From a candidate division TM6 bacterium GW2011_GWF2_38_10 (GTDB lineage: Bacteria; Babelota; Babeliae; Babelales; RVW-14), in assembly GCA_000992305.1 (NCBI GenBank), contig LBTY01000007.1, positions 28,620 through 92,619 of the forward strand: a stretch of DNA of 64,000 nucleotides. Direction: 5' to 3'. The position numbers and the translations under genes were made by a program. The notes beneath the pieces were generated by a model, which saw nothing but the letters and a program-made list of their open reading frames with translations, was not told the DNA's origin and ran no database searches. This document shows positions 3,289 to 31,176 of this stretch, one piece after another; position 1 is the stretch's first letter; every line of letters starts with the position of its first letter.

Positions 3289-4614
3289 ATGAACCTAACA
3301 CTCTACAATTCGCTAACGCGAAAAAAAGAATCTTTTACACCACTAGATCCCACAACGGTGCGCATGTATGTGTGTGGCATTACGCCCTACGACTATGCAC
3401 ATCTTGGGCATGGTCGCTCGTCAATAAATTTTGATGTTTTATTCCGCCTTTTAAAACACCTTTACCAAAACGTTTCCTACGTAAGAAATTACACTGATAT
3501 TGATGATAAAATAATTGCTAAAGCAGCTCTAGAAGGCGCACCGGAAAACTTTATTGCTCTTGCCCAACGCTACATATCGATCTATCAAGAAAATATGCAC
3601 CAACTCAACTGCCTCCCGCCAACACATGAACCACGCGTAACCAACTACATAGCTCCCATTATAAATTTTATTGCGGGACTGGTTGATGCCGGCAAAGCAT
3701 ATGTTATTGATCACGATGTCTATTTTGACATTTCCTCATTTCCTCACTATGGCAAACTATCAGGTCGCAGCGAGCAGGACTTGCTCGCTGGAGCACGTAT
3801 TGACATAGATGAACGCAAACACAATCCAGGCGACTTTGTGCTATGGAAAGGAAATACCGAACAAAAATTTTGGCAATCCCCCTGGGGATACGGCCGACCA
3901 GGCTGGCATATCGAATGCTCAGTTATGTGTAAGGAACTTCTTGGTGAAACGATCGATATTCACGGCGGCGGTATGGACCTTCTCTTTCCTCACCATGAAA
4001 ATGAAATAACCCAATCAGAAAGCCTTTCTGGAAAACCATTTGCTCGCTATTGGCTTCATAACGCCTTTATTACCATTAACAAAGAAAAAATGTCCAAATC
4101 ACTGGGTAATTTTATTACCTTGTCGGCATTATTTAAACAATATGATCCAATGGTTTTTCGCTACTTTATTCTTCAACACCACTATCGCACGCCCATTGAT
4201 TTTTCAGATAGCGAACTTACGGCAAGCCAAACAGCTTACAAAAAACTCATTGCCGCATTTGCCCACGTGCCCGCAGCATGGGATCAGCATATAACACACC
4301 CGCTCATCGTACAACTCATGCAAGCACTGTGCGATGATTTGAATACCCCTCGATATCTTGGTATTATCTTTGAACATTTATCGCACCTCAAAGATGATAT
4401 TGAACTTGCAGCCCATGTTCGCTTTACCTTGCAAACTATTGTTGGCTTAACTCTTGCCCCACTAGAAAACCCCCAACAAATCACCCCTGAAATTCAGGCA
4501 CTACTTGAGGAACGCGAACAAGCGCGCAAAAACAAAGATTGGGCGCGCGCCGATCAAATCAGATCCCAGCTCACCGCAATGGGATATCAACTTCATGATA
4601 AAAAAACATCATAA
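3289..4614 (+). CDS. cysS: cysteinyl-tRNA synthetase
   Basis: 441 aa. Class I HIGH-type motif (HLGHGRS) and KMSKS motif (KMSKSLGN). CysRS blocks MYVCGITPYDYAHLGH and GWHIECS are present. Confidence 0.95.
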   Translation: MNLTLYNSLTRKKESFTPLDPTTVRMYVCGITPYDYAHLGHGRSSINFDVLFRLLKHLYQNVSYVRNYTDIDDKIIAKAALEGAPENFIALAQRYISIYQENMHQLNCLPPTHEPRVTNYIAPIINFIAGLVDAGKAYVIDHDVYFDISSFPHYGKLSGRSEQDLLAGARIDIDERKHNPGDFVLWKGNTEQKFWQSPWGYGRPGWHIECSVMCKELLGETIDIHGGGMDLLFPHHENEITQSESLSGKPFARYWLHNAFITINKEKMSKSLGNFITLSALFKQYDPMVFRYFILQHHYRTPIDFSDSELTASQTAYKKLIAAFAHVPAAWDQHITHPLIVQLMQALCDDLNTPRYLGIIFEHLSHLKDDIELAAHVRFTLQTIVGLTLAPLENPQQITPEIQALLEEREQARKNKDWARADQIRSQLTAMGYQLHDKKTS

Positions 4615-4641
4615 CAATCCAAAGAGCTCATAAGGAATTTT

Positions 4642-6093
4642 ATGAACACACAAAAACCAGTCGTCAGAACTCGCTTTGCACCAAGCCCTACCGGATTTCT
4701 GCACGTAGGCGGGCTACGCACTGCTTTATACGCATACCTTCTTGCCAAAAAACATAATGGTCAATTTATTTTACGCATAGAAGATACCGACAAAACACGA
4801 GAAGTCCCTGGCGCCATTGACAATATTATCAACACACTTTCGTGGGCAGGCATTGAATTTGATGAAGGCCCAGGAAAACCTGGCCTCTGCACAACGTATA
4901 TTCAATCACAACGACTTCCGTTGTACAAAAAATACGCCGAACAACTTGTTGCCCAAGGTGATGCATACTACTGCTTTTGCTCCGCTGAACGCCTTGACCA
5001 AGTTCGCAAAGAACAACAAGCAAACCACCAACCCCCTGCCTATGATAAACACTGCCGTAACCTTCCTGCTGAAGAAGTTGCCAAACGACTTGCAAACGGC
5101 GAGCCTCACGTTATCCGCATGAAAATTCCACGTGAAGGTGAAATGACCTTTACCGACACCATCCGCGGCATCGTCAGTATTAATTATAAAGCAGTTGACG
5201 ATCAAGTAATTATTAAATCTGATGGATACCCAACCTATCACCTTGCCGTTGTGGTAGACGATCATGATATGTGTATATCACACGTTATTCGTGGCGAAGA
5301 ATGGTTGCCAAGCACTCCTAAACACCTTCTGCTCTACCGCTACTTAGGCTGGCAAGCACCCGTATTTGCCCATCTTCCATTACTTTTAAATCCAGATCGT
5401 AGTAAATTAAGTAAGCGCCAAGGCGATGTTGCCGTTCAAGACTACAAAGAAAAAGGGTACCTTGCGCAAGCGCTTGTCAATTTCATAGCCTTTTTGGGCT
5501 GGAATCCTGGCGATGAACGTGAATTTTTTTCACTCCAAGAACTCATACAAGAATTTTCACTTGAACGCGTTGGCCACGCAGGAGCCGTCTTTAATGTGCA
5601 AAAACTGCAATGGCTTAACCAACAATACATTATGAAAACGCCAACCGATCAGCTTTATCAACTCATCCTTCCTTATCTTGAAAAAACTACGTGGAGCATT
5701 CCTTCACAAGACTATGTTTATAACGTTATTAACATAATGAAAGATCGCGCCGTCCTTCTTCCTGATTTTGTTACACTAACTGAATTTTTCTTTCTTGCCC
5801 CAACCAGTTACGATCAAGCAACACATGCAAAATGTTGGAACGAAGACACCAAACGCCACCTAACAGAACTTGAAGCGCGCTATGCAACACTTGAACCATT
5901 CACCGCACAAACAACTGAAGCAAGTCTCAGATCCTACGCTACAGAACTCAACATTTCGGCAGGCAAGCTGCTTCTCCCCTTACGCCTTGCCGTTACAGGA
6001 TCTGGACAAGGACCAAGCTTATTTCATGCAATCGAAATATTAGGCAAACAAGAAACACAAAAAAGAATCCTCTCTTTTTTAAACTACAAATAA
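4642..6093 (+). CDS. gltX: glutamyl-tRNA synthetase
   Basis: 483 aa. RFAPSPTGFLHVGGLRTALY (HIGH region), LRIEDTD, and KLSKRQ (KMSKS-type). Confidence 0.95.
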   Translation: MNTQKPVVRTRFAPSPTGFLHVGGLRTALYAYLLAKKHNGQFILRIEDTDKTREVPGAIDNIINTLSWAGIEFDEGPGKPGLCTTYIQSQRLPLYKKYAEQLVAQGDAYYCFCSAERLDQVRKEQQANHQPPAYDKHCRNLPAEEVAKRLANGEPHVIRMKIPREGEMTFTDTIRGIVSINYKAVDDQVIIKSDGYPTYHLAVVVDDHDMCISHVIRGEEWLPSTPKHLLLYRYLGWQAPVFAHLPLLLNPDRSKLSKRQGDVAVQDYKEKGYLAQALVNFIAFLGWNPGDEREFFSLQELIQEFSLERVGHAGAVFNVQKLQWLNQQYIMKTPTDQLYQLILPYLEKTTWSIPSQDYVYNVINIMKDRAVLLPDFVTLTEFFFLAPTSYDQATHAKCWNEDTKRHLTELEARYATLEPFTAQTTEASLRSYATELNISAGKLLLPLRLAVTGSGQGPSLFHAIEILGKQETQKRILSFLNYK

Positions 6094-6106
6094 ACATTAT
6101 CCATTT

Positions 6107-6160
6107 AAAACGGTGTATTACGGCGCATTGCTAATCACAATAATACACCGTTTTTTCTTT
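6107..6160 (+). terminator. terminator after gltX
   Basis: 14-bp perfect stem, aaaacggtgtatta (6107-6120) with taatacaccgtttt (6141-6154), followed by a T-run. The 20-nt loop is unusually long. Confidence 0.6.
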
Positions 6161-6314
6161 TTTCTTTATATAAAAAAATACAAAGCGAAATTTAAAATCA
6201 AGCAGTTGACTAAACATCATAACTTCGGCAGAATAAAATCATCAACAATAGAAAACAAGATAGTCTAACCCACATACTTTTTTATAACACAAGAAAAAAC
6301 TATAAGGAGGTTTT

Positions 6315-7151
6315 ATGTTAAAAAACATACTACCGAATAACCACGCTAAAAAATGTTTACACTATGCTTTTTTGTTAGCATTAACAACATCAATGTGTAC
6401 GGCAACAACACCAGAATTTTCAACATCTCAACCAAAACAATCACAAGCTTCCACAGCAACGGTAGAAACACAACCATCCGCTCAAGAATCGACAGAACAA
6501 TTTTCAGTACCACAAATTATCAATATTGTAAGCCAAAATATACCCTCAATTCTTGGGGCACTCAAAGCTAAAGCATTATCACTATGCTCAACCATTGACC
6601 AACTCACACTTTACAAATTTAGCAAAAACAATGAACAAACCTTTAAAAAATTAACCTATGCCCTCACCAACACAATCGAAACAAGTCTCAAGCTACACCC
6701 ACACACTACCAAAACAATAACCATTACAACTGACCAAGCAACCATCGTCATCGAAGAAAATGAATACATACAAGCTCATTCCTTTATCAAAAATCAAATT
6801 ACACCACCACCATCAATATCTCATGACCAAAGAGAACAAAAAAACGTCCACATCAAACAAATAGCTAACGATAAGCTTGTTGAAGCACTCTGCTCGATTA
6901 TCACAGTTTTTGTAACCGGCTCAATTCGACAAAACGATATAACATTACTTGTTAAAAACGACATTAAGAAGACACTGTGCGAATCTATGGCACAATCCCT
7001 CACCCTTCAAGAGCTCACAGAACTGACAAAATTTATTTCAAGCCCACTTTATAAAAAATTATGCGCTAATATCGATGAATTTGTCGCTATTTTCGCATCA
7101 ATTATACCATCGTCCCTCCACACGATTATTACATCATCCTATAAAGAATAA
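6315..7151 (+). CDS. hypothetical exported protein
   Basis: 278 aa with a strong SD (taaggagg) and signal-like N-terminus AFLLALTTSMCTA. The C-terminal segment LTELTKFISSPLYKKL is faintly DUF2059-like, which is a weak impression only. Confidence 0.55.
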   Translation: MLKNILPNNHAKKCLHYAFLLALTTSMCTATTPEFSTSQPKQSQASTATVETQPSAQESTEQFSVPQIINIVSQNIPSILGALKAKALSLCSTIDQLTLYKFSKNNEQTFKKLTYALTNTIETSLKLHPHTTKTITITTDQATIVIEENEYIQAHSFIKNQITPPPSISHDQREQKNVHIKQIANDKLVEALCSIITVFVTGSIRQNDITLLVKNDIKKTLCESMAQSLTLQELTELTKFISSPLYKKLCANIDEFVAIFASIIPSSLHTIITSSYKE

Positions 7152-7272
7152 ACAGTTTTGCTAGACATAACCTAACGGTTTGCTACAATTATTGGTGATT
7201 TTAAACCTTGTTTGATGTATAACAAAAAATGTAAACTTAAATGATTATGCTATTCTGAAAGGCTATTTGACC

Positions 7273-7611
7273 ATGGAATACACAGAAATACCTGTTTTTG
7301 AAAAATACGCATTGTTCCAGACTGGTGGCAAACAATACCAAGCTATTCCAGGGAAAACAGTGGCTATTGAAAAAATTGAAGGTGAAGCAGGACAAGAACT
7401 TGTTTTCAATGAAGTTTTGTTCCGTAAAAATGGCGAAAATTCATTCGAAATTGGACAGCCATTTGTAAAAGGCGCACAAATTAAGGCAAGCATTGTAAAA
7501 CAACACAAAACTGCTAAAGTTGTTGTTTTCAAATTTAAACGCCGCACAAAATACAGAACAAAAACTGGCCACCGCCAAAAACAAACAATTATTCGCATCA
7601 CCGAAATCTAA
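7273..7611 (+). CDS. rplU: 50S ribosomal protein L21
   Basis: YALFQTGGKQYQAIPGKTVAIEKIEG...VVVFKFKRRTKYRTKTGHRQKQTIIRITEI is the classic L21 pattern. The track begins at TTG 7267, but the ATG at 7273 is the more likely start. Confidence 0.9.
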   Translation: MEYTEIPVFEKYALFQTGGKQYQAIPGKTVAIEKIEGEAGQELVFNEVLFRKNGENSFEIGQPFVKGAQIKASIVKQHKTAKVVVFKFKRRTKYRTKTGHRQKQTIIRITEI

Positions 7612-7633
7612 ACATTCTTGTTTATACAGATTT

Positions 7634-7669
7634 AAAAAAAGAAGCCTTTCTGTAGGGCTTCTTTTTTTT
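7634..7669 (+). terminator. rho-independent terminator after rplU
   Basis: A-run, then stem gaagcc (7641-7646) with ggcttc (7656-7661), then T8. Confidence 0.7.
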
Positions 7670-7757: not shown

Positions 7758-10577
7758 ATGAAGTACTTACGTCTATCGCCGCTTCTTCTTGCAACAACAC
7801 TCGCCTATACTCCTGTGCAGCTTTTTACTACCCCAGCGCCTACACCAATGACATATCAATTACCAACCCAAAGGCTCTTCCAAGCAGTACTTAATAAAGA
7901 TGCTCTAGCAATCGAAGATCTCTTGAAACAAGGAGCCTATATCAATGCCCAAAACGAAGATGGGGATCGCCCCATTGATATTGCCTATACCCAAGGAGAT
8001 TTTTATCTTGTTTCTCTTTTAAAAAACTATGGCGCCGATGTACAAAAAGAACGCATCGGGAAATTACCTCAAGAATTCAAAGCCCCACCGATATCTGAAA
8101 CTTTTTTTGAAAAATCTAAACTTAAACAAGAATGCATCGCAATACTTGAAGATACCCAAAAAGCATTTGATCTATTTAAACGAGGTAGAAAAACTCCTAA
8201 ACATTATAGCGATATGGATAATGAAGAAAAATTTTATCTCGATTTTGAACATGCAACAGTGCAAGAAAAATATCCGCTCGTTTATTTACTTTTGCGAAAG
8301 CAAGTTAATGCTTTGCTAGCCCATAAACCGATGAATAAATATATCAAACTTGGTATAATTTTCTCACCAACCGAAAAAAATCTCATCTACCATAATGCCT
8401 ATGCAGATACATTCTCTAATACTATACGTTTTGGCTGGGTATATCTTTATAATTACATAACCAATAATTACATTCCCTACACCATATGGAATACGCTTGC
8501 ACATGAGTGGCAACATCTGTATCAACTCGCCTACTCAACAGAAATAGAAATAACTGATGAAACACTCCCCATCGAAAAAGAAATAGATGCTGATTTTCTC
8601 GCGTCTAAAACATCTCTCTTACATATCGATGATACAGCTACATATGAAATCACAAAAGGGCATTTTATTACCCTTATTTATGTATATCTTTCATCAAAAA
8701 CAGCACACCATCCAACGTTACTTATAGAAGGATCAAATCATATTTTAAGGGCTATAACTGACCTGAATCCATATTTTCTGAATAATAACCTTAATTTTAT
8801 AAGAACCGCACTAAAAACCCTTATTGATAAAGCACATACAGATGCCCCTAAAAGACAATCTACTCGTGAATACTATCAATCCATTGTGCAATTCATACTT
8901 AACAACTATCACAAGGAAATTCAAAAACCATACATTCAAGAACAACAAGATTTTAAAAGCGATCACCCCTCTGACAAAGCTCGTAATGAAAACACCCTTA
9001 AAGTACGATGTCTTTATGAAATTTTACTTTTAAAAAAATACTATGGAACACAAGCAAGCGTCACCATATCTCCCCAAAACGCTCCCTTTTTACACACGCT
9101 TATAACTAAAGATCTTGCTATTGCTGCAATTGAAGATAAATCACAAAATCAACCCGCTACCGATTTACCCCAACAAGAAAATAGCACCCCACCACTAAAT
9201 CCTTATCATGATTTTACGTACACCATTCAACTCAGCGACTATAGCAATACCCCAATCTTAAATCCTTTTATTATTAAAAATAACGCTGTATTTGGTATAG
9301 TTTTACCTGAAAATTTTATCATTTTTGCGCTCTGCAACCCTCAACCTCATAAAGTTTTTTCCTCAACTATCATTGATGCTCGAAAAAAAACAAGTAGTCT
9401 CTCAAATGAAAGTAATGCATCTGATCTACCCAAAAAACAAATATACCCATTCAATAAAAACGCATTTACTGTTTTTGAACAACTCTACAACCAAAGCTTG
9501 TCGCTAACTTTACAATCCACAAATCCTTTTTTACATCACGAAAAAGCAATAATACTTTTTGCTCAAGTTGCTCACATTCTTCCAGAACTTGCATCACACC
9601 TTGTAGATGCTATAACAAAAGAAAAAATCGCAGCAGCCCTTGAATATATTACAATAACTATTTTTTCAATCCCCGAAGAAAATAATATAAACAACATTAG
9701 CCTCTTATCATCACGAAAAAAAAGCGAAGATATTGTCAATAAAGTTTCCCTTACACTTTTTGCTTTTTTTGCAGGTCTCGATAACTCAATTAAATTAACT
9801 ACTATAACTACAGAAATAAATAAAAAACTCCTTATAGCAGCAGATAATCTCCGCTTCAAAACTCTCATAGAAAAAATATTTTCAATTTTTTTTGGAACAC
9901 AGCAAATATCATTATTAGAAAAACTTATTGAATTTAAACTCAAAAAAACATTTTACAGCTATATAAAAAAAGGAGCCAATGTCAATACTCAAAACCATCA
10001 AGGCGATACGCCTTTACATCAAGCCATTAAAACTAATAAAAAACTATTTACACAACTACTATTAAAACTAAAAACTATAAACCCTGATATAGCAAATAAA
10101 GATGGCGAAATTCCATTACACATTGCCATTAAAAAAAAGACGGGCCAACCAATCATCGGTATGATTCTTGCAAAAACAACCAACATCAATGCCCAAAACA
10201 CCTATGGCAACACCCCCTTGCACATAGCCATAATTTTATCACAATTCGATATTATAGAACTTCTATTAAACCAAAATACAATAAATACTGATATAGCTAA
10301 TAAGGATGGCGAAACTCCATTACACATTGCAATAAAAAAAAGGATGGGCCAATCAATCATAGATATGATCCTTGCAAAAACAACCAACTTCAATATTCAA
10401 GACAATCAAGGAAACACTCCTTTATACAAAGCAATCGATGAAAAAAATATCCCAACAGTCCAACTATTACTGCAGCACAATGCTGATCCTTCAATTAAAA
10501 ATAATGCTGGAAAAACTCCCGCAAGTCGTGCTCTTGAAAAAGATATAGACCTAAATGAAATAAAGGAAGATCAATAG
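7758..10577 (+). CDS. ankyrin-repeat protein with a central HExxH (zincin-like) motif; candidate host-interaction effector
   Basis: 939 aa. There is an N-terminal ANK repeat (LLKQGAYINAQNEDGDRPIDIAY) and at least 5 C-terminal ANK repeats (GDTPLHQAI, GEIPLHIAI, GNTPLHIAI, GETPLHIAI, GNTPLYKAI, GKTPASRAL). HEWQH lies at nt 8502-8516 in the context LAHEWQHLYQLAY. A hydrophobic N-terminus is present. Confidence 0.85.
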   Translation: MKYLRLSPLLLATTLAYTPVQLFTTPAPTPMTYQLPTQRLFQAVLNKDALAIEDLLKQGAYINAQNEDGDRPIDIAYTQGDFYLVSLLKNYGADVQKERIGKLPQEFKAPPISETFFEKSKLKQECIAILEDTQKAFDLFKRGRKTPKHYSDMDNEEKFYLDFEHATVQEKYPLVYLLLRKQVNALLAHKPMNKYIKLGIIFSPTEKNLIYHNAYADTFSNTIRFGWVYLYNYITNNYIPYTIWNTLAHEWQHLYQLAYSTEIEITDETLPIEKEIDADFLASKTSLLHIDDTATYEITKGHFITLIYVYLSSKTAHHPTLLIEGSNHILRAITDLNPYFLNNNLNFIRTALKTLIDKAHTDAPKRQSTREYYQSIVQFILNNYHKEIQKPYIQEQQDFKSDHPSDKARNENTLKVRCLYEILLLKKYYGTQASVTISPQNAPFLHTLITKDLAIAAIEDKSQNQPATDLPQQENSTPPLNPYHDFTYTIQLSDYSNTPILNPFIIKNNAVFGIVLPENFIIFALCNPQPHKVFSSTIIDARKKTSSLSNESNASDLPKKQIYPFNKNAFTVFEQLYNQSLSLTLQSTNPFLHHEKAIILFAQVAHILPELASHLVDAITKEKIAAALEYITITIFSIPEENNINNISLLSSRKKSEDIVNKVSLTLFAFFAGLDNSIKLTTITTEINKKLLIAADNLRFKTLIEKIFSIFFGTQQISLLEKLIEFKLKKTFYSYIKKGANVNTQNHQGDTPLHQAIKTNKKLFTQLLLKLKTINPDIANKDGEIPLHIAIKKKTGQPIIGMILAKTTNINAQNTYGNTPLHIAIILSQFDIIELLLNQNTINTDIANKDGETPLHIAIKKRMGQSIIDMILAKTTNFNIQDNQGNTPLYKAIDEKNIPTVQLLLQHNADPSIKNNAGKTPASRALEKDIDLNEIKEDQ
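10086..10403 (+). repeat. intragenic tandem duplication, period 204 nt (two ANK repeats per unit)
   Basis: 10086-10199 and 10290-10403 align base for base with few substitutions (gatatagcaaataaagatggcgaaattccattacacattgcc... against gatatagctaataaggatggcgaaactccattacacattgca...). Confidence 0.7.
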
Positions 10578-10642: not shown

Positions 10643-10718
10643 GCGGGAATAGCTCAATTGGTAGAGCATTGCCTTCCCAAGGCAAGGGTTGCGGGTTCGA
10701 GTCCCGTTTCCCGCTCCA
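10643..10718 (+). tRNA. tRNA-Gly (anticodon CCC), CCA encoded
   Basis: Manual cloverleaf. Acceptor gcgggaa/ttcccgc, D arm gctc-aattggta-gagc, anticodon arm ttgcc-TTCCCAA-ggcaa, T arm gcggg-ttcgagt-cccgt, discriminator T, then CCA. Confidence 0.9.
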
Positions 10719-10742
10719 AAATGTTATCACATAGAATATATA

Positions 10743-10766
10743 CCCTGGCACGTGCCAGGGTTTTTT
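10743..10766 (+). terminator. terminator after tRNA-Gly
   Basis: Palindrome ccctggc-acgt-gccaggg (10743-10760) followed by T6. Confidence 0.7.
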
Positions 10767-10805
10767 GTCCTTACCTGTTTTATTATTATAAGGAAGCATT
10801 TTTTT

Positions 10806-11564
10806 ATGGTTAAACACATTTTCACACTTTATGCATTATTTATTTTTGCATTTTCAATCAACACCCATACACTGGATTGCAGCATACAACAATGTTCAAG
10901 TCTTCAAGAAATAACCAATACTATCGAAAATCAAACCCTTTTTGTTTTCGATTTTGATAACACACTTTTTGAATGTGTTGACGCACAACAAGGAAGCGAT
11001 CAATGGTTTGCTGGAGCAATTAATTATTTTAAAAAACAACATAATGATCAAGCATTTGAACACGTTCTTAATCTTTATCAACAAAAACATCAAACAGCGC
11101 TCATTCAACCAGCAGAAGCCTGTACGCTTGATATTCTGAACCAACTCAAAAAACAAGTTCCTCATATCAACGTCATTATTCTTACGGCACGGTCTATCAT
11201 TCAAGAAACAGAACGTGAATTAGATAACATTCAAAACGCCCCGGTTTCATCATTTTCTTTCGCCCCCTTTCACCTTGATGCTCATAAATCAAAAACATTC
11301 CGCCTTTCAAAAGAAGATGCTTTTTATAAAAATGGCATTATGTTTTGTGGTTGCAATAAAAAAAGCGAAGCGCTTATAGCTTTATTACAGCATTATAAGC
11401 TTACCCCTAAAAAAATAGTTTTTGTTGACGATCGCCAACACCATGTTGAAGATGTGCACTCAGCACTCACCGCACAATCTCTCAATATAATAGGACTCCA
11501 TTACACTCACCTTGCAGATAAAATTAACGCATTTATTTTTAATCCCGCAACACTTGTTGCTTAA
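10806..11564 (+). CDS. exported HAD-superfamily (DxDxT) hydrolase-like protein
   Basis: The track ORF starts at 10689 inside the tRNA. The realistic start is the ATG at 10806 (MVKHIFTLYALFIFAFSINT signal). HAD motif I is FVFDFDNTLF (DFDNT at 10950-10964) and motif IV-like is IVFVDDRQHH. Confidence 0.65.
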   Translation: MVKHIFTLYALFIFAFSINTHTLDCSIQQCSSLQEITNTIENQTLFVFDFDNTLFECVDAQQGSDQWFAGAINYFKKQHNDQAFEHVLNLYQQKHQTALIQPAEACTLDILNQLKKQVPHINVIILTARSIIQETERELDNIQNAPVSSFSFAPFHLDAHKSKTFRLSKEDAFYKNGIMFCGCNKKSEALIALLQHYKLTPKKIVFVDDRQHHVEDVHSALTAQSLNIIGLHYTHLADKINAFIFNPATLVA

Positions 11565-11596: not shown

Positions 11597-12346
11597 ATGT
11601 TTTTAAAAAAACTACTACTTTCAATTGCTCTCACAACTTGTACCATAACCTCATACGGGTTAACTGCAGCACGCGAACCATTAAATAACCCTTCGCCAAA
11701 TATCAATTACGTTAATTCGCTTAATAACTTAACCCAATACAATAACAGTATTATCATTATGCCGCTTGAGCTATTTTTTAATATTGGCCATTCATTTGAT
11801 GAGCACAACCGAAGCATCCCCCGTCCATCGACAATAAATGTATTTGCCGCCTCATTACTTAACAGAACATTTTACTCATACCAAGCCGTTATTGCATGCC
11901 AAGAAACACTTTTTATAAAAAAAGGTTTTAACAGCGAAGAATACAGCCTCGAAGAAGATATCCAAGAAGTTGAAGCACTTATTAAACGCTATGATACGTT
12001 GCATCACAAAACCAACTATTACAAAAAAAGTACCCCTGATACAACTTTTATATCCCAACTTCACCTTGCAAACGATACCCTTATACTTGAAAGCCAGAAC
12101 GGTCAAATCATCTATAAAAACGGTGTTTTATACACAGGCAAAAATACAACAAAAAATGCATTAATTGCATTTTTTAATTATTTTGAAAAAAATGATTTCT
12201 CATTTCTTAGAACATTAATCTATGTAAACACAACCCCCTGCAAAACTGCAGTCATTGAATCAATTGCTCAAGATTTTCACTGCGGAGCACTTCAATTTGT
12301 TTGCCCTTATAAAAAATACTACCTACCAGACAACTTTCAATTCTAA
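11597..12346 (+). CDS. paralogue of the preceding HAD-like protein lacking the catalytic Asp motifs
   Basis: 249 aa with a signal peptide. IYKNGVLYTGKNTTKNALIAFFNYF aligns with FYKNGIMFCGCNKKSEALIALLQHY of the upstream gene. Motif I is replaced by IIIMPLELFFN and motif IV by LIYVNTTPC. Confidence 0.6.
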   Translation: MFLKKLLLSIALTTCTITSYGLTAAREPLNNPSPNINYVNSLNNLTQYNNSIIIMPLELFFNIGHSFDEHNRSIPRPSTINVFAASLLNRTFYSYQAVIACQETLFIKKGFNSEEYSLEEDIQEVEALIKRYDTLHHKTNYYKKSTPDTTFISQLHLANDTLILESQNGQIIYKNGVLYTGKNTTKNALIAFFNYFEKNDFSFLRTLIYVNTTPCKTAVIESIAQDFHCGALQFVCPYKKYYLPDNFQF

Positions 12347-18882: not shown

Positions 18883-20595
18883 ATGAATGGCTCAACATTG
18901 TGGGACTTTAAAAAAACACTGCATACAATGCTTATAATTTCGCTGTGTGTACCATCCCTAGTGGGAATGCCACGCGCAAGCAAATCATCAACAAGCACAC
19001 TCTCAACGTCTATGCCAAGCGCAAAAGCAACTCCTCTAACAATCCCAACAACACCAAAGCAATCGCCGTTTACATCTATGCCCCAGATAAAACCTCTATC
19101 ATTGGCAAGCAACGCTTCACAAGCAGCCCCACTACAACTCCCCACTACCGCTCCTAAGCTTCAAACACCCAAACCAACCCTCCCTCTTACCACCGCTGTA
19201 CCACAACTTCAAACACTTTCCCCCACCCCTTCACAACCACTTGCAACTCAAGTAACAATGCCAATACAACCAAGCACGCCGCCTCAAGCAAAACAACCCC
19301 CAGTCCAACTCACATCACGTTCAATCCCGCAACTGCCACAAGCAACATCAGCACCACTTTCATTACCAACAGTTTCACTTCCACAAGAACCAAACGGTTC
19401 TCAAACAATCGCTCTTCCAGACGAAAAAATTGGCATCCAAGGTAATTGGATGAAAAAAAAAGATTGGCTCTTACGTTCTAACGAAGTATTTGATGCACTC
19501 CAAGCAAGTGTCAATAACCTTCAAACCGTTCGACAAGACTATCAAAAAAAATATCACGCTATAGATAAAGAATTTGACGCCTTTTATAAAAAAGCAAGTC
19601 TTGAACAAGGAAAAATACAAGAACTTTTTGCAGGGCTTGAACGATATCTTGAAAAAAAGAAAAAAGAAAAAGAAGATGAATATACACAAGAAAATCAAAC
19701 ACCAGAACAAGAAGAATTAGCCAACCGAGAATATCTTTTAAAAGTTGAATTGCTCAATGATGAAATCAAAAAAAATCGCGAAGAACTTGAACAACTCAAA
19801 CTTGATCTGCAATCCATTGAAGACTTAGATAAATCAATTATTGCACGACTTGAACGTTTTGATGAACAATTTGAAAAGGCTCATGATCTTTATGATCAAG
19901 CGGAACAAGATATTGAACAACTATGGGATATAATCGATGATTCTCTTGCCCGAGAAATTTATTACAAACTTAAAAACAATATCACCCTGCACATTGAAGC
20001 AATTACAGGATATTTGCAAGAAGATCTTGCAAAAGACCTTGACAGCGTTATAGAAACGGCACGTTCACAAATAAAAAAAACCGAAGAAGAAATAAAAGCA
20101 TTAGAAGAAAAAGGATTTATTGTTAAAGATAGATCTCGCCGTATTGAAGAAATAAAATTACAAGAAATACAACAACAAGAACAAGCCAAAAAAGAAGCTG
20201 AGCAAATTCCAACTAAAATTGAAACAATCGATCTTAAAAAAATAAAACGGAAACCAACACGCTGGTATGAAAAGGCCTACGATTGGTTTACGACCATGAT
20301 TTCAAAAATCTACGAATATTTTGGTATTGCATATCCCCAAAAGTCAAAAGATGAACAACTACAACAAGAATCGAAGATTAAAGTAACAATGCCGACCGCC
20401 ATTAACATGCCAACAACACAAGAATCTGAATCGCCCAAGCTACAAACGATAATGCCATCTAAAAGTACACCACCTTCGACCATTCCCTTAAATATCAATC
20501 CAACACCTATATCAAATACTTCAATGATGCCTCAATCTGAACTTCCTAACCCCAATCTATCCCCAGATAATCAAGCTCCTATGAGCATGGAATAA
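18883..20595 (+). CDS. hypothetical secreted protein: Pro/Thr/Ser-rich, then coiled coil, then amphipathic Trp-rich segment, then a Pro-rich tail
   Basis: 570 aa. Hydrophobic N-terminus MLIISLCVPSLVG, roughly 150 aa of P/T/S/Q low complexity, then a long heptad-like E/K/L/Q region, then RWYEKAYDWFTTMISKIYEYF. Confidence 0.6.
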   Translation: MNGSTLWDFKKTLHTMLIISLCVPSLVGMPRASKSSTSTLSTSMPSAKATPLTIPTTPKQSPFTSMPQIKPLSLASNASQAAPLQLPTTAPKLQTPKPTLPLTTAVPQLQTLSPTPSQPLATQVTMPIQPSTPPQAKQPPVQLTSRSIPQLPQATSAPLSLPTVSLPQEPNGSQTIALPDEKIGIQGNWMKKKDWLLRSNEVFDALQASVNNLQTVRQDYQKKYHAIDKEFDAFYKKASLEQGKIQELFAGLERYLEKKKKEKEDEYTQENQTPEQEELANREYLLKVELLNDEIKKNREELEQLKLDLQSIEDLDKSIIARLERFDEQFEKAHDLYDQAEQDIEQLWDIIDDSLAREIYYKLKNNITLHIEAITGYLQEDLAKDLDSVIETARSQIKKTEEEIKALEEKGFIVKDRSRRIEEIKLQEIQQQEQAKKEAEQIPTKIETIDLKKIKRKPTRWYEKAYDWFTTMISKIYEYFGIAYPQKSKDEQLQQESKIKVTMPTAINMPTTQESESPKLQTIMPSKSTPPSTIPLNINPTPISNTSMMPQSELPNPNLSPDNQAPMSME

Positions 20596-20739: not shown

Positions 20740-21381
20740 ATGAAAAAAAAATTACTCATACTTGGTGCCCTAACAGGGTGCATCTATTGGCATAACCCCA
20801 TACTTAACGCCATGATGGATGATGAAATGGCAACCGAAGAATCCGAAGAAACAATGGAAGCCCCCGCCGAAGAATCTCCAGCGGAAGAATCAATGGACAT
20901 GGAAGCGTCCCCTGCAACACCTGAAGCACCCGACACCTCTATGGGAATGAATGAGATGCCTTCAGCACCATCATCGAGTGAACCTTCCATGGGTATGGAA
21001 ACCCCGCCAGCACTGCCACAAGAGACATTACCCCTACCAACAACACCTCCCGCTGGCTCACCGCTCTCACCGTCAACTCTAACAACGCCCACACCTCAAG
21101 AAGCATCAACCCAACTTAAATGGCCAGATACCATAGAACTTACTGAAGAAACAAAACCAATAAGCACCACCAGTAATCCGACAATATTAAAGCATTTTCA
21201 AGAAGCAAAAAAAATAAAAAAGGAAACAAAAAAAACAATAAAAAAACTTGCCGATCATGAAAAAACACTCTTTGATACCTATAACGAAATGAATACGGCT
21301 ATTGACAACTTCTTACAAGAATCATCGTTTATCCAAGGAAAAATAACGAAACAAATTTCAACCGTAACCAGTGAAGAATAA
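20740..21381 (+). CDS. hypothetical lipoprotein, acidic/Pro-rich N-half, helical C-half
   Basis: 213 aa. Lipobox LGALTG|C, an E/P/M/S-rich region, and a C-terminal TAIDNFLQESSFIQGKITK that resembles AIDKEFDAFYKKASLEQGKIQE of the 18883 protein. Confidence 0.6.
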   Translation: MKKKLLILGALTGCIYWHNPILNAMMDDEMATEESEETMEAPAEESPAEESMDMEASPATPEAPDTSMGMNEMPSAPSSSEPSMGMETPPALPQETLPLPTTPPAGSPLSPSTLTTPTPQEASTQLKWPDTIELTEETKPISTTSNPTILKHFQEAKKIKKETKKTIKKLADHEKTLFDTYNEMNTAIDNFLQESSFIQGKITKQISTVTSEE

Positions 21382-21393
21382 AAAAGGAGTATT

Positions 21394-22809
21394 ATGAAAA
21401 AAATAATAAATAATGCACTACTCATAACCCTTGGATCAACATTTTACATAACACATATGGGAGCAATGCCCATGGTCGATTCTACAGTCCCTTCGCCAAT
21501 CCCAGCAAATCCCACCCCAATCATAACGCCAACACCCACTCCCGCACCAACCATACCCACCCCTGTTTCCCCCACTCCACCAGCAGCAACTCCATCAGTT
21601 CTCCCTGCAGCCGGAACACCAATGCCATCTCCTCAAGTTGCTCCATCCGCAGGATCAACCGCACCGGTAGCCGCAATAGATTCCACACAGGCACCAACTC
21701 AAGAAATTGAACAACTTAATAAAATTGTTGAAGAAATAAAAACCATAAAACAAACACTCCAACAAGAATTATCAAAAACGCAAGATGAAATTCAAAATGC
21801 TCGAACAAACTATGCACAAATGCGCGAAAAAAGTAAATCCATACTTCAAAGTTCACAAGAATCTGAAAGTCAAGAATTGCTCAAAAGCGTTGCCGACCTA
21901 CAAGAAACAATCTCAACCATAAATACAAATGTTACATCAACAATGAAAAAATCAATCGATGATGCCCAAGAAAAACTCCAAAGTCTTATTAAACAAGGAA
22001 CTGAATTAACACAAAAAATTCAAGAAAAAGGACATCAATACCACGTCAGTCAATTAAAAATTAAAGAACGTGAAGAACAAATTAAGCGTGAAGAAGCACT
22101 AGCCAAAAAACGAGCACTTGAAGAACAAAGTATTTGGAATCGTATCACATCATGGATAGCAAAAGCAGTTAAACGCGTTCAAAAATTTATTCTCGGATTT
22201 AAAAAAATAATTGCACAACCGGAAGAGCAACAACCACAAAAAAATACCACTCCAGAGTCGGTAGAAAAAAAAAAATCTAGCGACGCAACACCCACTCCAA
22301 ACTCAGCCGACAACCCCACAACCAGCACAACCTCAAACGCAGAACCCACAACTTCCACAAGCGAACCCAAAACAGAATATGCAACTTCCACTCAACTAGA
22401 AACAGTACTTCAACAAACAAATACTGCGCTTTTAGAACTTGAAAAAACACAAAAACAGACCGCCAAACAACTTGTAAAACTCGATGAACAAACAACACTT
22501 TTCGGCAACATGGAAGACGCTCCGGAGCTTTCAGAAAACATTGCATCAACAGAATCAGCTCCACGCTGGAAACGCATGATTTTATTTATCACCAGTGAAT
22601 TAATTGATGCCGGCGAATACGCAGTCCGTGGAGTTATCGCACTTGGAAAAAAAATATATGATTACCTTTTTTCAGGAATCGTACAGCGCGTTGTTGTTGA
22701 TGTTCACGAAAAACTACAAGAAAAAGATGCACTCCAAGAACAACAAAAAAAAGAACAAGAATTACCCGAATATCAACCATCACCAGAAGCAACAAAAAAC
22801 GAAGAATAA
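21394..22809 (+). CDS. hypothetical secreted Pro-rich/coiled-coil protein
   Basis: 471 aa. Signal peptide, then a P/T/A-rich stretch, coiled coil, and IWNRITSWIAKAVKRVQKFILGF (compare the 18883 protein). It starts 12 nt after the previous gene. Confidence 0.6.
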   Translation: MKKIINNALLITLGSTFYITHMGAMPMVDSTVPSPIPANPTPIITPTPTPAPTIPTPVSPTPPAATPSVLPAAGTPMPSPQVAPSAGSTAPVAAIDSTQAPTQEIEQLNKIVEEIKTIKQTLQQELSKTQDEIQNARTNYAQMREKSKSILQSSQESESQELLKSVADLQETISTINTNVTSTMKKSIDDAQEKLQSLIKQGTELTQKIQEKGHQYHVSQLKIKEREEQIKREEALAKKRALEEQSIWNRITSWIAKAVKRVQKFILGFKKIIAQPEEQQPQKNTTPESVEKKKSSDATPTPNSADNPTTSTTSNAEPTTSTSEPKTEYATSTQLETVLQQTNTALLELEKTQKQTAKQLVKLDEQTTLFGNMEDAPELSENIASTESAPRWKRMILFITSELIDAGEYAVRGVIALGKKIYDYLFSGIVQRVVVDVHEKLQEKDALQEQQKKEQELPEYQPSPEATKNEE

Positions 22810-22832: not shown

Positions 22833-25577
22833 ATGATGAGTATGTCCAAAATGGTAAAAAAATATAGTGTACTAATCAGCATTGGTCTACTCATCATACT
22901 CCTTTTTCTCATCAACCACCGCAGCCCTATAATCACTATCGCAACCATCACCCAACAGGATACATCAACAATTCACCACTATGTTCTATCCAATGGGCTC
23001 ACCCTCCTTATTCATCACAAACCTCAAGCACCTCATACCTTTCTCCAAATAACCTATAATGTTGGCTCAGCAAAAGAATCGCATGCACCCAAAGGCATTG
23101 CTCATATCATTGAACATATGCTTTTTAAAGGAACAACTACCTACGCAGAGCGCGATATTCCTGCTATTGCACGTATGTTTGGTGCAAAAATCAATGCGGC
23201 AACCTCATTCGATTTCACCTGGTACTATGTTGATACAAGTAATGATCACTGGAAACCTTTTATCGATATTTTTGCCGATTGTATGTGTAATGCACGCTTT
23301 GCCAAACAACACCTTGCCTCAGAAATTAAAACAATTATTCGAGAAGTAAAAACAGCAAAAAATACAATCCATAAAATACTCCGTGAACAAATGTTTGAAT
23401 ATGCATATCCTCCTAATCATCCATATCATTTTTCGATTGGAGGCTATTATGAGGATCTTAATCGCATAACGCCACAGGATTTACATACGTTTTATAAAAA
23501 GCATTATCGCCCCGACAATGCAGTACTTTTTATAACAGGAGGATGCGACCCTGAAAGCGTAAAAACCTATGTACAAAAAGTATTCGGTCCAATTAAACAA
23601 CCACAAGAACCAAAACCTTCGTCGTTCAATAGCACATCTTGGAGTAACCAACTCGGCAAGAACGTAACGCTCTATAAAAAAGTAGCACACCCGCGCATTG
23701 CATTTTTTTGGACCATTCCCGGGCTTAAAGATGAAGATGAAATTGTATCATCAGATCTAGCCTTTCTGATTGGTAACACCATGCATGGAAGTTTGTATCA
23801 CGAAGTAATAACCAATCAAAAACAAGCCATATCACTTTCTGTTGCTGCAACGAAACATTTGTATGGAGGATTATTTATCATCACCTGCACACCAACAAAA
23901 AATGAATACACCGCACTGGCTCAAACAATAACAACCCATTTACAAACATGTGCCAAGCAAGGTTTTTCATCAGACGCCATAAAAACCATGACCGCCCATA
24001 AACAACGTATTTTTTATCAAGACTATCTTCAGCCAGAAACAATGACGCGCAACTGGAGTAAATCATTTTTAGCAACACATAATCCCTTTATCTTTTTCCA
24101 ACGACCACACCACTACAACCTTTCAGACCCCAAAAAACTCCAAAGCTTTATTGCGACCTATTTGCAACCAGAATTCATGCACCAACTAACAATTCTGCCT
24201 CTTAATAAAAAAAGAAAAAGAAGCCTTGAAAAAATCACGGAAAAAAAGGAACAGCGTGATGCACAACTCTTACAGTCTAACCCACGCTCCACACCGCTTG
24301 ATACGCTCAAAAGAGCGCTAACACTTACCCCACCGCCACTCATCATTCCCTCATATCCACAACCAAATACAACCGTTACCTACCCTCATGGGCTCACCGT
24401 AATCATGGCTCAACGTCATGACACCCCCTTGGTTACACTACAATTCGGACTTAAAAACGCATGTTTCTTTGAAACATCGTACCAAAGCGTATTCCTTGAA
24501 ACCTTTATGAAAATCGTATGTGAGCAGATCAAGCATCATCCAAACTTACCACGCTCACTCACCATAACACACAATACAACAAGTATTACCTGTTCATGTT
24601 TGGCATCAGATGCTGATGCCACTATCGATCTTATTGCTTCACTTTTTAGTCTTGAAACACTCACGAACGCCGAACCGGAATACAAATCGAGTCGGCGTGC
24701 CATATATAACTTGTATAAAAAAAGAAAAAACCGACATAAAGAAACACTCTACCGAACAATCACGCAACACCTGTATCCGCAAACATGTTTTGATTGGTCA
24801 TTTAACGATGCACTTGCAACACTAAAAACAATAACTGCCACTGAACTTTTCAACTCACTTACACCCCTTATCCACGCTCAAAATTTGATTTGTGTTATTG
24901 TTGGAGACATTGATTGCACAAAACTTGAATCACACCTACAAAAAACCTTCGGTACTTTTGCAACCAACACACCATTGCCGGTACCGAATACACCGCTCAC
25001 ACCGAGTCATCATAAACCTCATATTGAAATCAAAACACAAAGCCCCATGATTACAACCGAGCTCGCAGCACCCCACACCATTTCTCTATTTTCTTATGAA
25101 TATGCCACCTGCAACATCCTTGAACATGTTTGTTTTCATGGATGGGGATCTCGTCTTTTTTCTCTACGAGAATCATACGGACTTTTTTATTCCAACTTTG
25201 GAGCATTTGCACAGAATGCAGAAATCGGCCATGGATTTCATTATTGGGGAGCAATAACAACACACGACGCGTTTGCACAAACAACTCAAAAGCTTACAGA
25301 ATCAATAACAAAACTTTTTACAACAGGAATAACTACCCAAGAATGCGCCGCCGCTAAACAACTCATTATAAAACAATGGAATAATGCCTTTGCATCGCCC
25401 CAAACACAAGTTCGCATACTCTTTAATCTCTATGCACATAATCACAGCATTCAGGATCTTAATGAATATCTTAGAACCATAGAAACATGTTCTTATAATG
25501 ATGTTAGCATAAGCACACACCGCCTTATTAACCCGCATAATTTTTTTCAGGCCACGATAGGAAATCAAAACAACTAA
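22833..25577 (+). CDS. M16 (pitrilysin/insulinase) family zinc peptidase, double-length, N-terminal membrane anchor
   Basis: 914 aa. Inverted zincin motif HIIEHMLFKGT (HxxEH) and a TM segment YSVLISIGLLIILLFLI. The length fits two M16 active/inactive domain pairs. It starts 23 nt after the previous gene. Confidence 0.85.
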   Translation: MMSMSKMVKKYSVLISIGLLIILLFLINHRSPIITIATITQQDTSTIHHYVLSNGLTLLIHHKPQAPHTFLQITYNVGSAKESHAPKGIAHIIEHMLFKGTTTYAERDIPAIARMFGAKINAATSFDFTWYYVDTSNDHWKPFIDIFADCMCNARFAKQHLASEIKTIIREVKTAKNTIHKILREQMFEYAYPPNHPYHFSIGGYYEDLNRITPQDLHTFYKKHYRPDNAVLFITGGCDPESVKTYVQKVFGPIKQPQEPKPSSFNSTSWSNQLGKNVTLYKKVAHPRIAFFWTIPGLKDEDEIVSSDLAFLIGNTMHGSLYHEVITNQKQAISLSVAATKHLYGGLFIITCTPTKNEYTALAQTITTHLQTCAKQGFSSDAIKTMTAHKQRIFYQDYLQPETMTRNWSKSFLATHNPFIFFQRPHHYNLSDPKKLQSFIATYLQPEFMHQLTILPLNKKRKRSLEKITEKKEQRDAQLLQSNPRSTPLDTLKRALTLTPPPLIIPSYPQPNTTVTYPHGLTVIMAQRHDTPLVTLQFGLKNACFFETSYQSVFLETFMKIVCEQIKHHPNLPRSLTITHNTTSITCSCLASDADATIDLIASLFSLETLTNAEPEYKSSRRAIYNLYKKRKNRHKETLYRTITQHLYPQTCFDWSFNDALATLKTITATELFNSLTPLIHAQNLICVIVGDIDCTKLESHLQKTFGTFATNTPLPVPNTPLTPSHHKPHIEIKTQSPMITTELAAPHTISLFSYEYATCNILEHVCFHGWGSRLFSLRESYGLFYSNFGAFAQNAEIGHGFHYWGAITTHDAFAQTTQKLTESITKLFTTGITTQECAAAKQLIIKQWNNAFASPQTQVRILFNLYAHNHSIQDLNEYLRTIETCSYNDVSISTHRLINPHNFFQATIGNQNN

Positions 25578-29020: not shown

Positions 29021-29251
29021 AGTAGTTTTTTCTCACGACAAAAAAATTGAACTTAACCGGGGTAAGTCTAACGTGATTTTTACAAAAGTACAACGACGAT
29101 AATTTTTGAACATTCATCCGCCTAACAAATTATAAAATAAACAAAAAGGTTGTGTGATCTCTCAATATAGTTATACTGCTTCGTACCCGCTCATATAAAA
29201 AAAGTATTGGTTTGTAGAACACGTGGTGTTTGTTTAAGAGGGGAACAACGT

Positions 29252-31176
29252 ATGAATACACCCAAAATACATGTGTTATTTCAACGCATAAAAGACCTTG
29301 GCTTTTCTGGCTTATTAACCTGGGGATCAACTAAGTATTTGCGTTATGCCATAAAAACTCGTTATAAAAAAAAGGCACTCGCCAAAAGAGCAAACCATCA
29401 ATGGTTGACCATTGCAAAGCGACACAAACGAGATGAATCGTTTGCCCAGTTTTTTGCCCTTCTAAAAACAAATCGTGTGTTTGAAAAAATGCTTAACTCA
29501 AATACGTTCTGCACGCATATACCCACCAGCTATCTTAAAGACCCTAATCTTTTTGGACAAGCGGACGCGTATGTCAACAACACCTTTTCTGTATTAGGAT
29601 CCCCAAACGTTAAATTCAATGAAAAAATCAATTGGCATGTTGATATCAAACTCCCTAAAGAAAAATGGGGAACCGAATACTGGAACCAACCACCACTTCG
29701 CTTTTATCAAGAAATCAAGGCTCAACAAATCTCTGAACCCACTTCAACCTATAACCCCGACATCAAGGTTCCATGGGAACTCTCTCGCATGCAACACCTG
29801 TTTGTACTCGGCTTGGCTTATAAACGCGCTATGGAAATTGAAGACTTTGTACTAGCAAGCCGCTACAGCAGTACATTTGTAACACACATCGACCATTGGA
29901 TTACCTACAATCCATTTCTCCTTGGTGTTAATTGGGTTTGTCCAATGGAAGTTGCAATTAGAGCAATCAACCTTATAGTTTCTCTCCAATTTTTTAAAGA
30001 GTGCACAAGTATTCCCGTTGCATTTTGGGAAAAACTCGTTTGTTCCCTCTATGACCACGCCTATTACCTAGAATACAACCCAGAAACTTCAGACCGTCCA
30101 AATAACCACTACATTTTAAAATCATTCATGAATATAACGAAAAGCAGACATCAACACTAGCCGAACTCTGGCGACAAATGAACAAGCAAATCAACCCAGA
30201 CGGCAGCAGTTACGAGGGATCAACAAACTACCACAAACTCGTAACCGAAATGTTTGAGCACGTCATTCTACTCTGTACCATTCAAGAAATACCCGTACCT
30301 CAAAAAAATATCAACCTTTTGCACATGATGAAAACATTTTTGCAGGATTGCACCGACATCGGCGGCAATTTAACGCAAATTGGCGATAATGATAGTGGTA
30401 AATGCATTACAGGCTATACTATTACACCAAGCCGATCTCCAAAATTATTGCAATATCGCTGGGCCGGTATCAGTATTATTAACACGCACGGGTGGCACTG
30501 CACCTTTAGACATCCCACCTTTTTTTCGTATCAACCAAGTGGTCATTTTCATCATGATGAGCTTGCCTTAACACTGTCACTCGACGGCAGACCACTGCTT
30601 GTCGATTCTGGAACCTTTTTATACACGAGCAATATATCACAACGCAATGCATTTAAAAGTGCGCATGCACACACAACCTATTACATTCCAGAACTCGAGC
30701 CAAGAAGCTCTATAGATCTCTTTCAGACAAAACGCTCGCACACAAATCATGACGCGATGATAGAAATTAAAGATAAGAACATTGTCATTCAAGATTACCA
30801 CAAAAAATATGAATCTTACGGAATTAAGGCGCACAGACGATTACTTTTTGACACCTACAAAGAAATATTTGAAATTCAAGACTGGCTGGAGCCATCAACA
30901 CAAAAAACCCAAATTAAATCAACTCATGAACAACATAACCTTGTATGGAATATGCATTGGGCCCCAGACATTGAACTTATTCAAAACGACGATCACGCAT
31001 GGATAATTACAAAAAAAACCAAACCTATAGCCCATCTAACCACAACCCTTTCGTTTGACTGCCAGGAAACACATATCAGCCCAGCATATGGAGCATTGGA
31101 AGCAACAAAGACCTTATCAGCGCAACAACCTGCAATACCAACAAAAGTCTATTGTACAAAAATTAGACGGTTTTAA
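29252..31176 (+). pseudogene. heparinase II/III-like (polysaccharide lyase family) gene split by a frameshift/deletion
   Basis: Two ORFs in different frames (29207/29252-30160 and 30178-31176). The first carries the N-terminal domain pattern (WELSRMQHLFVLGLAY...WITYNP...VNWVCPMEVAIRAINL...PNNHY). The second carries NPDGSSYEGSTNYH and GHFHHDELALTLSLDGRPLLVDSGTFLY...SAHAH. The NNH-to-DG spacing looks shortened. Confidence 0.7.

Follow-up and report, generated by a model that had tools for sequence, protein, structure and literature searches.

Peptidase family M48 (PF01435), to which Ste24/ZMPSTE24, HtpX, Oma1, BepA, LoiP and YcaL belong, carries four motifs in a fixed order, NA[FWY]A, HExxH, Ex[ED]AD and HPx4R. 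In BepA, the zinc ligands are H136, H140, E201 and H246, the last of which forms part of an autoinhibitory active-site plug; the exchange H246N deregulates the enzyme and E137Q kills its activity (PMC7950410, Bryant et al.). The HPx4R motif is conserved throughout PF01435, and members of the family can be recognised by H-E-x-x-H-x(30,140)-H-P-x(4)-R (PMC7950410). Here we describe a 939-amino-acid (aa) ankyrin-repeat protein that carries candidate counterparts of these four motifs in its central region. It is encoded in a 64,000-nucleotide (nt) stretch of the genome of candidate division TM6 bacterium GW2011_GWF2_38_10 (assembly GCA_000992305.1, contig LBTY01000007.1, positions 28,620 to 92,619 of the forward strand), which is referred to below as the window and supplies all coordinates unless another contig is named.

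The other described system that bears on this protein is the PVC-metallopeptidase domain (DUF4157, PF13699), for which Zhang et al. give the signature HExxHxxQ-E on a core of three strands and three helices (PMC3482391). It is typically found N-terminal to variable C-terminal effector domains, and a role in their release or processing has been proposed (PMC3482391; PMC8213781). DUF4157 is dispensable for cargo loading, and its own function is still open (bioRxiv 10.64898/2026.05.27.728243).

The Dependentiae (TM6) are a phylum of host-dependent protist parasites with expanded sets of ankyrin proteins (PMC4776705; PMC6561590). Most of these proteins carry signal peptides; in one member, Chromulinavorax, the share is 78%, and M48 peptidases are among the proteins predicted to be secreted. 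Ankyrin proteins with such signals are presumed to be the effectors that Dependentiae secrete (PMC6561590). Like the Ank effectors of Legionella and Coxiella and the Dependentiae expansions, the protein described here joins ankyrin repeats to an enzymatic or other module in a host-dependent bacterium. The Legionella Ank proteins are substrates of the Dot/Icm type IV system, whereas the window protein falls below all of their equivalog cut-offs: weak matches to the AnkY, AnkH, AnkG and AnkX models of NCBIfam are confined to the repeats, and the best of them, T4SS_AnkY, reaches 92 bits against a cut-off of 600. The literature consulted describes no combination of ankyrin repeats with an M48-like module.

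Here, we report that three motif blocks in the central region of this orphan protein are invariant in all full-length relatives found, and we argue that the region probably holds a zinc-peptidase-like active site. On balance we lean towards seeing the whole protein as a Sec-exported, ankyrin-flanked, divergent gluzincin of the M48/DUF4157 neighbourhood that acts as a secreted protease on a protein of the protist host.

Results

An orphan ankyrin-repeat protein with invariant HExxH, ExxAD and HPx4R motifs

The 939-aa open reading frame (ORF) delimited at 7758..10577 (+) in a preliminary description of this DNA is real, its product being identical to the NCBI hypothetical protein US69_C0007G0039 of the same organism. 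The protein is laid out as follows:

7758..10577, + strand: coding sequence, 939 aa, stop included, with an AAGGA ribosome-binding-site-like sequence ~8 nt before the ATG
7758..7817, + strand: Sec-type signal-peptide-like N-terminus, aa 1 to ~20, MKYLRLSPLLLATTLAYTPV (heuristic)
7869..8042, + strand: 1-2 degenerate N-terminal ankyrin repeats, aa ~38-95 (from hhalign alignment to the C-terminal repeats of the same protein)
8340..8627, + strand: putative zincin catalytic core, aa ~195-290, with three strands, a short helix, the HExxH helix and the Glu helix (AlphaFold, hhalign)
8394..8405, + strand: NAYA, aa 213-216, putative counterpart of the M48 strand motif NA[FW]A, A216 invariant
8502..8525, + strand: HEWQHLYQ, aa 249-256, HExQHxxQ and the preceding Ala invariant (4/4)
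8580..8594, + strand: EIDAD, aa 275-279, counterpart of ExEAD in the M48 proteases of Escherichia coli, invariant
8595..8963, + strand: helical insertion, aa 280-402, which separates the Glu helix from the HP motif by about four long helices (AlphaFold predicted local distance difference test, pLDDT, ~57-73)
8964..8984, + strand: HPSDKAR, aa 403-409, an HPx4R motif and putative counterpart of the M48 autoinhibitory plug, HPx4R invariant (4/4)
9045..9962, + strand: conserved central region, latter half, aa ~430-735, with both strands and helices, no relatives detected outside the family
9972..10547, + strand: six C-terminal ankyrin repeats, aa ~739-930 (repeat anchors; best Pfam stretches aa 799-916)

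Relatives of the protein are few. A word-indexed search of 5.8 billion clusters returned one besides the protein itself (P0002, 743 aa, 52% identity), and P0003 (1163 aa, 31% identity) was the only addition from an exhaustive hmmsearch over 1.84 billion representative proteins. Two scans of genome contigs and a first metagenome scan yielded no relative; a second metagenome scan gave contig L003, which encodes a fourth full-length member of 1175 aa, 70% identical to P0003. All four full-length members share the signal-peptide-like N-terminus, 1-2 N-terminal ankyrin repeats and the central domain.

The sole HExxH of the window protein, HEWQH, lies at residues 249-253 (nt 8502-8516), where the preliminary description had placed it. 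A bare HExxH is expected ~0.04 times by chance in a protein of such size and composition, and 3.7% of shuffled sequences carry one. The pentapeptide alone proves nothing; as judged from the aligned sequences, its invariance in every homologue, together with the further invariant motifs, is beyond chance. Across the four full-length proteins the invariant blocks are A-H-E-x-Q-H-x-x-Q (248-256), E-I-D-A-D (275-279) and H-P-x4-R (403-409), and their invariance persists down to 31% identity. The three most conserved 11-mers of the alignment include PYTIWNTLAHE. The EIDAD pentapeptide forms an island, invariant at 5/5 positions, in a loop that is variable and indel-rich even in the pair of P0003 and the L003 protein, which are 70% identical. 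The position of NAYA is occupied by NAYA, NAHA, DNFA or NYFA in different members, and only its final Ala is invariant. The preliminary description had made its protease reading depend on conservation of the motif among orthologues and on a structural model with a third zinc ligand 6-30 residues downstream; HExxH is kept in every homologue, and a candidate for the ligand is the invariant E275, which stands 22 residues after H253 within the ExxAD motif.

Comparison with M48 peptidases

The reference set consisted of the four M48 proteases of an annotated E. coli genome, each of which carries, from the N- to the C-terminus, NA[FW]A, HExxH, ExEAD and HPx4R. In the window protein, NAYA213, HEWQH249, EIDAD275 and HPSDKAR403 occur once each and follow the same order. 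This motif set, with its putative HPx4R plug counterpart, appears to fit M48 better than the small toxin domains. A hhalign comparison with the E. coli proteins gave P 0.0038 over aa 193-265; the same comparison with SprT and with the window's own M3 peptidase gave nothing. The predicted order of secondary-structure elements is also like that of M48. On the other side, there is no similarity to M48 at the level of hidden Markov models (HMMs), the middle residue of EIDAD is D where M48 has E or H, and the window protein adds a 124-aa helical insertion before the putative plug, a ~300-aa conserved domain and the ankyrin repeats.

With BepA, a periplasmic M48 protease of E. coli, the protein shares the plan of a signal peptide (predicted here), M48-type active-site motifs and a helical-repeat module for protein interaction. 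The repeats of BepA are tetratricopeptide repeats (TPR), not ankyrin repeats, and BepA is a conserved housekeeping protein, whereas the family described here is hypervariable and orphan; any functional parallel between the two would be one of analogy.

Comparison with the DUF4157 domain

DUF4157 proteins were sampled with a synthetic consensus used as bait only, which yielded 188 proteins; among the matches listed, 120/120 were annotated as PF13699. The HExxHxxQ signature is present in 111 of 117 sampled proteins, and ExxA[DE] follows the second His after 21-28 aa in 10 of the 20 with enough downstream sequence, compared with 5% by chance. DUF4157 is the first non-family match of the family HMM and its best profile-profile partner (hhalign probability 65%, P 6e-5, 42 columns, aa 211-260, including the segment A.A..I.FG). 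In this alignment NAYADTFSNTIRFG..Y.PYT..LAHEWQHLYQ of the family is paired with A.AYTvG.dIVFg..yaP.t..LLAHELaHVvQQ of DUF4157, and the flanks add a modest signal, in that 0/60 motif-keeping shuffles reach the real score.

The likeness thus comprises HExxHxxQ with ExxA[DE] 21-28 aa further on (22 here), the upstream A.A..I.FG segment, and the position of the domain N-terminal to variable domains. Unlike the lumen-loaded cargo of extracellular contractile injection systems (eCIS), however, the window protein has a predicted Sec signal, and it has HPx4R where the DUF4157 sequences compared are short fragments. No sheath, tube, baseplate or AAA domains of an eCIS, the kind of system with which DUF4157 is associated, were found among the window ORFs scanned, nor in contigs L001 to L003, of which L001 encodes P0002 and L003 the fourth full-length member. 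Of the resemblance to metallopeptidases of polymorphic toxins that was drawn in the preliminary description, the HExxHxxQ spacing is real and DUF4157 is indeed the best partner, but the match is weak and mostly driven by the motif.

Predicted structure

The AlphaFold models are of low confidence, and the order of secondary-structure elements is their only informative part. It is the same in both models computed: a helix; strands at 197-202, 214-217 and 222-226; a short helix; the HExxH helix at 240-260; a helix at 277-287 that starts at EIDAD; four long helices; and the HP motif in a loop before another helix. As modelled, this order is compatible with a zincin and no proof of one.

Ankyrin repeats and N-terminus

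Pfam and PDB searches of the 939-aa protein found ankyrin repeats only, all of them C-terminal. The matches are strong (Pfam Ank_2 1e-33 and Ank 1.3e-29; ankyrin and designed ankyrin repeat protein, DARPin, entries of the PDB down to 2e-69). The C-terminal array varies within the family: P0002 lacks it, and in P0003 as well as the L003 protein it is longer. Ankyrin repeats had been proposed for both ends; the C-terminal array stands, with six repeats, and the N-terminal one stands in part. With the N-terminal segment as query, aa ~62-90 match the protein's own C-terminal repeats (hhalign probability 94%, P 1.5e-7), while Pfam finds nothing at E<=0.001 in aa 1-110 of the window protein. Pfam does detect ANK at aa 39-88 of the homologue P0003, the equivalent place, and N-terminal repeats are seen in every full-length member.

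The extreme N-terminus has two K/R among its first 6 aa, no D/E among its first 22 and a hydrophobic core with a Kyte-Doolittle value of 1.7. By the same heuristic, all four full-length members begin with a positively charged n-region, which is followed by a hydrophobic core and by small residues around position ~16-20. The signal-peptide-like N-terminus and the lifestyle of the Dependentiae fit a secreted effector.

Three matches to the central region were rejected as chance-level: phrog_7942 (E 0.041), a ligand-binding receptor (E 0.87) and a Gla domain. The last is a weak likeness of aa 113-166 (window 8094..8255), ETFFEKSKLKQECIAILED, to the Gla domain of vertebrate protein C (E 0.19 against the PDB), likewise judged to be chance.

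A hypervariable locus next to a tRNA gene

The surroundings of the gene, and the stretch of contig L001 that encodes P0002, contain the following features:

7267-7611: rplU, Ribosomal_L21p (Pfam), upstream neighbour
7634..7668, + strand: intrinsic-terminator-like hairpin ending the rplU transcript, 15-pair stem followed by a T run
10643..10718, + strand: tRNA-Gly(CCC), conserved right-hand boundary of the variable locus, 100% identical in L001
L001, 3..1133: partial family gene upstream of P0002 (compare window 7758..10577)
L001, 1212..3443: P0002, without a C-terminal array (compare window 7758..10577)

The variable locus is bounded by rplU and tRNA-Gly(CCC). The upstream terminator mentioned in the preliminary description corresponds to the strong hairpin at 7634-7668, 3' of rplU; because it ends the rplU transcript, the 939-aa gene probably has its own promoter. 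The gene was also correctly described as more AT-rich than its neighbours, as its GC content is 33.7%, compared with 38.5% in the whole window and ~44% in gltX. After rplU (L21) come the terminator and the ankyrin gene, not the usual operon partner rpmA (L27), and no L27-sized ORF lies between rplU and the ankyrin gene (window 7267..7668 region).

Comparison with L001 sets the gene apart from its surroundings. Identity between the two contigs is 100% for tRNA-Gly, 98% for an ABC ATPase, 100% for an ABC permease and 84% for a DUF2608 gene, and it is 52% for the 939-aa protein. The number of synonymous substitutions per site (dS) is 1.16 for the 939-aa gene and 0.19-0.47 for the flanking ABC genes, a 2.5-6x difference. 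The ratio of non-synonymous to synonymous substitutions (dN/dS) is 0.31, so the gene is still under constraint. These two values (dS 1.16, dN/dS 0.31) disfavour positive selection in situ as the cause of the 52% identity, and older paralogy or allelic replacement fits better. Directly upstream of P0002, L001 carries a partial gene whose product opens with the last part of the family's central domain and then runs on as an ankyrin array; by this sequence layout it is a tandem paralogue of P0002. A translocation of this upstream gene as the origin of the window protein's C-terminal array was considered and rejected, since the identity of 37-38% is typical of any pair of ankyrin repeats. The locus is thus hypervariable, paralogue-bearing, adjacent to a tRNA gene and still under constraint.

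Downstream of the ankyrin gene lie the DUF2608 (HAD-like) gene (10689..11564) and a weakly related 249-aa gene (11597..12346), which shows 28% tblastn identity to the DUF2608 gene of L001 and is itself absent from L001. The mechanical start of the DUF2608 gene, TTG 10689, overlaps tRNA-Gly at 10643-10718; for this reason the true start is probably ATG 10806 (MVKHIF..., signal-peptide-like). On L003, a 755-aa leucine-rich-repeat protein (4602..6869), also a eukaryote-like repeat protein, is encoded just downstream of the 1175-aa family member.

Other genes in the window

The window also encodes two canonical metallopeptidases, of families M16 (22833..25577, +) and M3 (39594..41723, -), dnaA (43321..44766, +) and SecDF (63021..63971, -); the presence of dnaA suggests that a replication origin is probably nearby. 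The N-terminal and C-terminal domains of a heparinase II/III lie in adjacent ORFs (29207..30160 and 30178..31176), as in a split or frameshifted gene. A three-domain ATP-dependent DNA ligase (61066..62832, -) and an alpha/beta hydrolase resembling platelet-activating factor (PAF) acetylhydrolase (46198..47349, -) have a eukaryotic or archaeal flavour, although the genome is that of a small parasite. Further orphan ORFs of 213-783 aa have no Pfam match (18883..20595, 20740..21381, 21394..22809 and 52189..54540 (-)).

Discussion

A divergent gluzincin is the best explanation of the central region because of the motif evidence, the invariance of the motifs and the order of the predicted secondary-structure elements. 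A secreted protease acting on a host protein is the most likely role, because the organism belongs to the host-dependent TM6/Dependentiae and the gene occupies a hypervariable locus with tandem paralogues. The host-targeting effector protease envisaged in the preliminary description is therefore retained as far as the signal-like N-terminus, the lifestyle and the motif set all fit it; protease activity, passage beyond the periplasm and a host target are what these features would imply by analogy.

In such a protein, residues ~195-410 would form a very divergent gluzincin of the neighbourhood of M48 (Ste24/HtpX/BepA) and DUF4157. By analogy with BepA, H249, H253 and E275 may bind zinc, with E250 as the general base that would activate the catalytic water and D279 completing the ExxxD motif of gluzincins. 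H403 of HPx4R would act as a removable fourth ligand that keeps the enzyme in an autoinhibited state and gives way when displaced by a substrate or partner, and the ankyrin modules could select the protein target. Taken to its full extent, this leads to a proposal that we advance only tentatively, namely that the effectors which Dependentiae export by the Sec route include a previously unrecognised, hypervariable family of M48-type metalloproteases, armed with ankyrin repeats and autoinhibited by a plug, in which binding of a protein of the protist host to the ankyrin repeats would displace the plug and trigger site-specific cleavage.

Several results weigh against a secreted gluzincin. The central ~630 aa (residues 100-730) have no match in Pfam, NCBIfam, PHROGs or PDB sequence profiles, and Pfam, with PF01435 and PF13699 included, remained empty for the central region at E<=10 (three members scanned). 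The two AlphaFold models have a mean pLDDT of 52, falling below 50 at residues ~260-290, and Foldseek searches with the models found nothing in the PDB at E<0.7. In the hhalign comparison with M48, the flanks of the motif add nothing significant, as 9/80 shuffles with HExxH fixed reach the real score, and a test for collinear chains of sub-optimal M48 alignments was null (44/100 shuffles reach the real score). In the comparison with DUF4157, motif-keeping column shuffles score 30.4 +/- 2.1 of the real 37.1, which indicates that the HExxHxxQ block supplies most of the score. An HMM built from the four E. coli M48 proteins gives <=2.7 bits, and one built from 120 verified PF13699 proteins gives 1.2 bits for the window protein, 3.4 for P0003 and 9.7 for P0002, all within the range of six-frame decoys. 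As this profile test fails for both families, the protein is assigned to neither PF01435 nor PF13699, although by analogy it appears to work like both.

The spacing of the motifs is also unusual: the Glu follows HExxH after 22 aa, compared with ~55-80 aa in M48, and the HP motif after 149-162 aa, just beyond the published 30-140. Given HExxH, the chance expectations for the other three motifs (~1e-3, 2e-3 and 1.3e-2) are post hoc, because two motif definitions were relaxed by one residue after the sequence had been seen. The signal peptide of the 939-aa protein is a call by heuristic, and the window ORFs scanned include no genes for type II, III, IV or VI secretion or for contractile injection, SecDF being the only export component found.

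An alternative is that the central region is a new kind of domain in an ankyrin effector, serving as a scaffold or for binding and not for catalysis, its motifs being structural or binding metal without proteolysis. In its favour, neither profile nor fold searches matched the region to a peptidase, ~4% of proteins of this size contain an HExxH by chance, and the motif block accounts for most of the profile-profile signal; moreover, the family comprises only two deep lineages, so the invariance of the motifs is thinly sampled. We nevertheless consider a non-catalytic domain unlikely, as four motifs, each present once, follow the M48 zinc ligands in order and chemistry and stay invariant where identity drops to 31%, and as EIDAD is conserved in a freely varying loop, a pattern typical of active-site residues rather than packing residues.

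If the site is active, the protein could still serve its own cell, as an M48-like protease of the periplasm or outer membrane devoted to BepA-like quality control of envelope proteins, with the ankyrin repeats in the role of the TPR and no host target. The BepA-like layout of signal peptide, M48-type motifs and helical repeats would suit this function, as would the lack of a dedicated effector secretion system near the gene. Housekeeping envelope proteases are conserved, however, yet this family has ~5 members among ~15 billion proteins, and it shows tandem paralogues, an ankyrin array that is gained and lost, and 52% identity where neighbouring genes have 98-100%. Together with the presumed status of signal-peptide ankyrin proteins as secreted effectors of Dependentiae (PMC6561590), this makes an envelope function rather improbable, and the variability of the locus favours a role in host interaction over BepA-like housekeeping.

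We give least credence to a zincin module that works in cis as a processing peptidase, releasing or maturing the ~300-aa domain and ankyrin array as the real effector. DUF4157 is the best hhalign partner, HExxHxxQ with ExxA[DE] is common to both, and the domain order is that of DUF4157 proteins with their proposed release or processing (PMC3482391; PMC8213781). Yet the DUF4157 HMM does not recognise the family, no contractile-injection genes are present among the window ORFs scanned, the Sec signal is unlike lumen-loaded eCIS cargo, and the part that DUF4157 itself plays is an open question, its presence being dispensable for loading (bioRxiv 10.64898/2026.05.27.728243).

We therefore retain the Sec-exported, divergent gluzincin directed at a host protein as the favoured interpretation. 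On the sequence evidence, the protein appears to be a new and highly divergent form of a known design, a secreted protein in which a zincin protease is joined to repeat modules. If the tentative proposal made above is true, this would be the first M48-type protease to serve as a host-targeting effector, and it would represent a zincin lineage too divergent for current profile libraries, extending the sequence space of M48 and DUF4157 to a profile-invisible lineage and joining the M48 plug mechanism to targeting by ankyrin repeats. Ankyrin proteins take up a large share of the coding capacity of Dependentiae, none of them with a known activity, and the 939-aa protein offers a concrete, testable chemistry. 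Because a protein of 52% identity stands amid flanks that are 98-100% identical, and because tandem paralogues accompany it, the locus is a candidate marker of arms-race evolution between host and parasite in an uncultured phylum.

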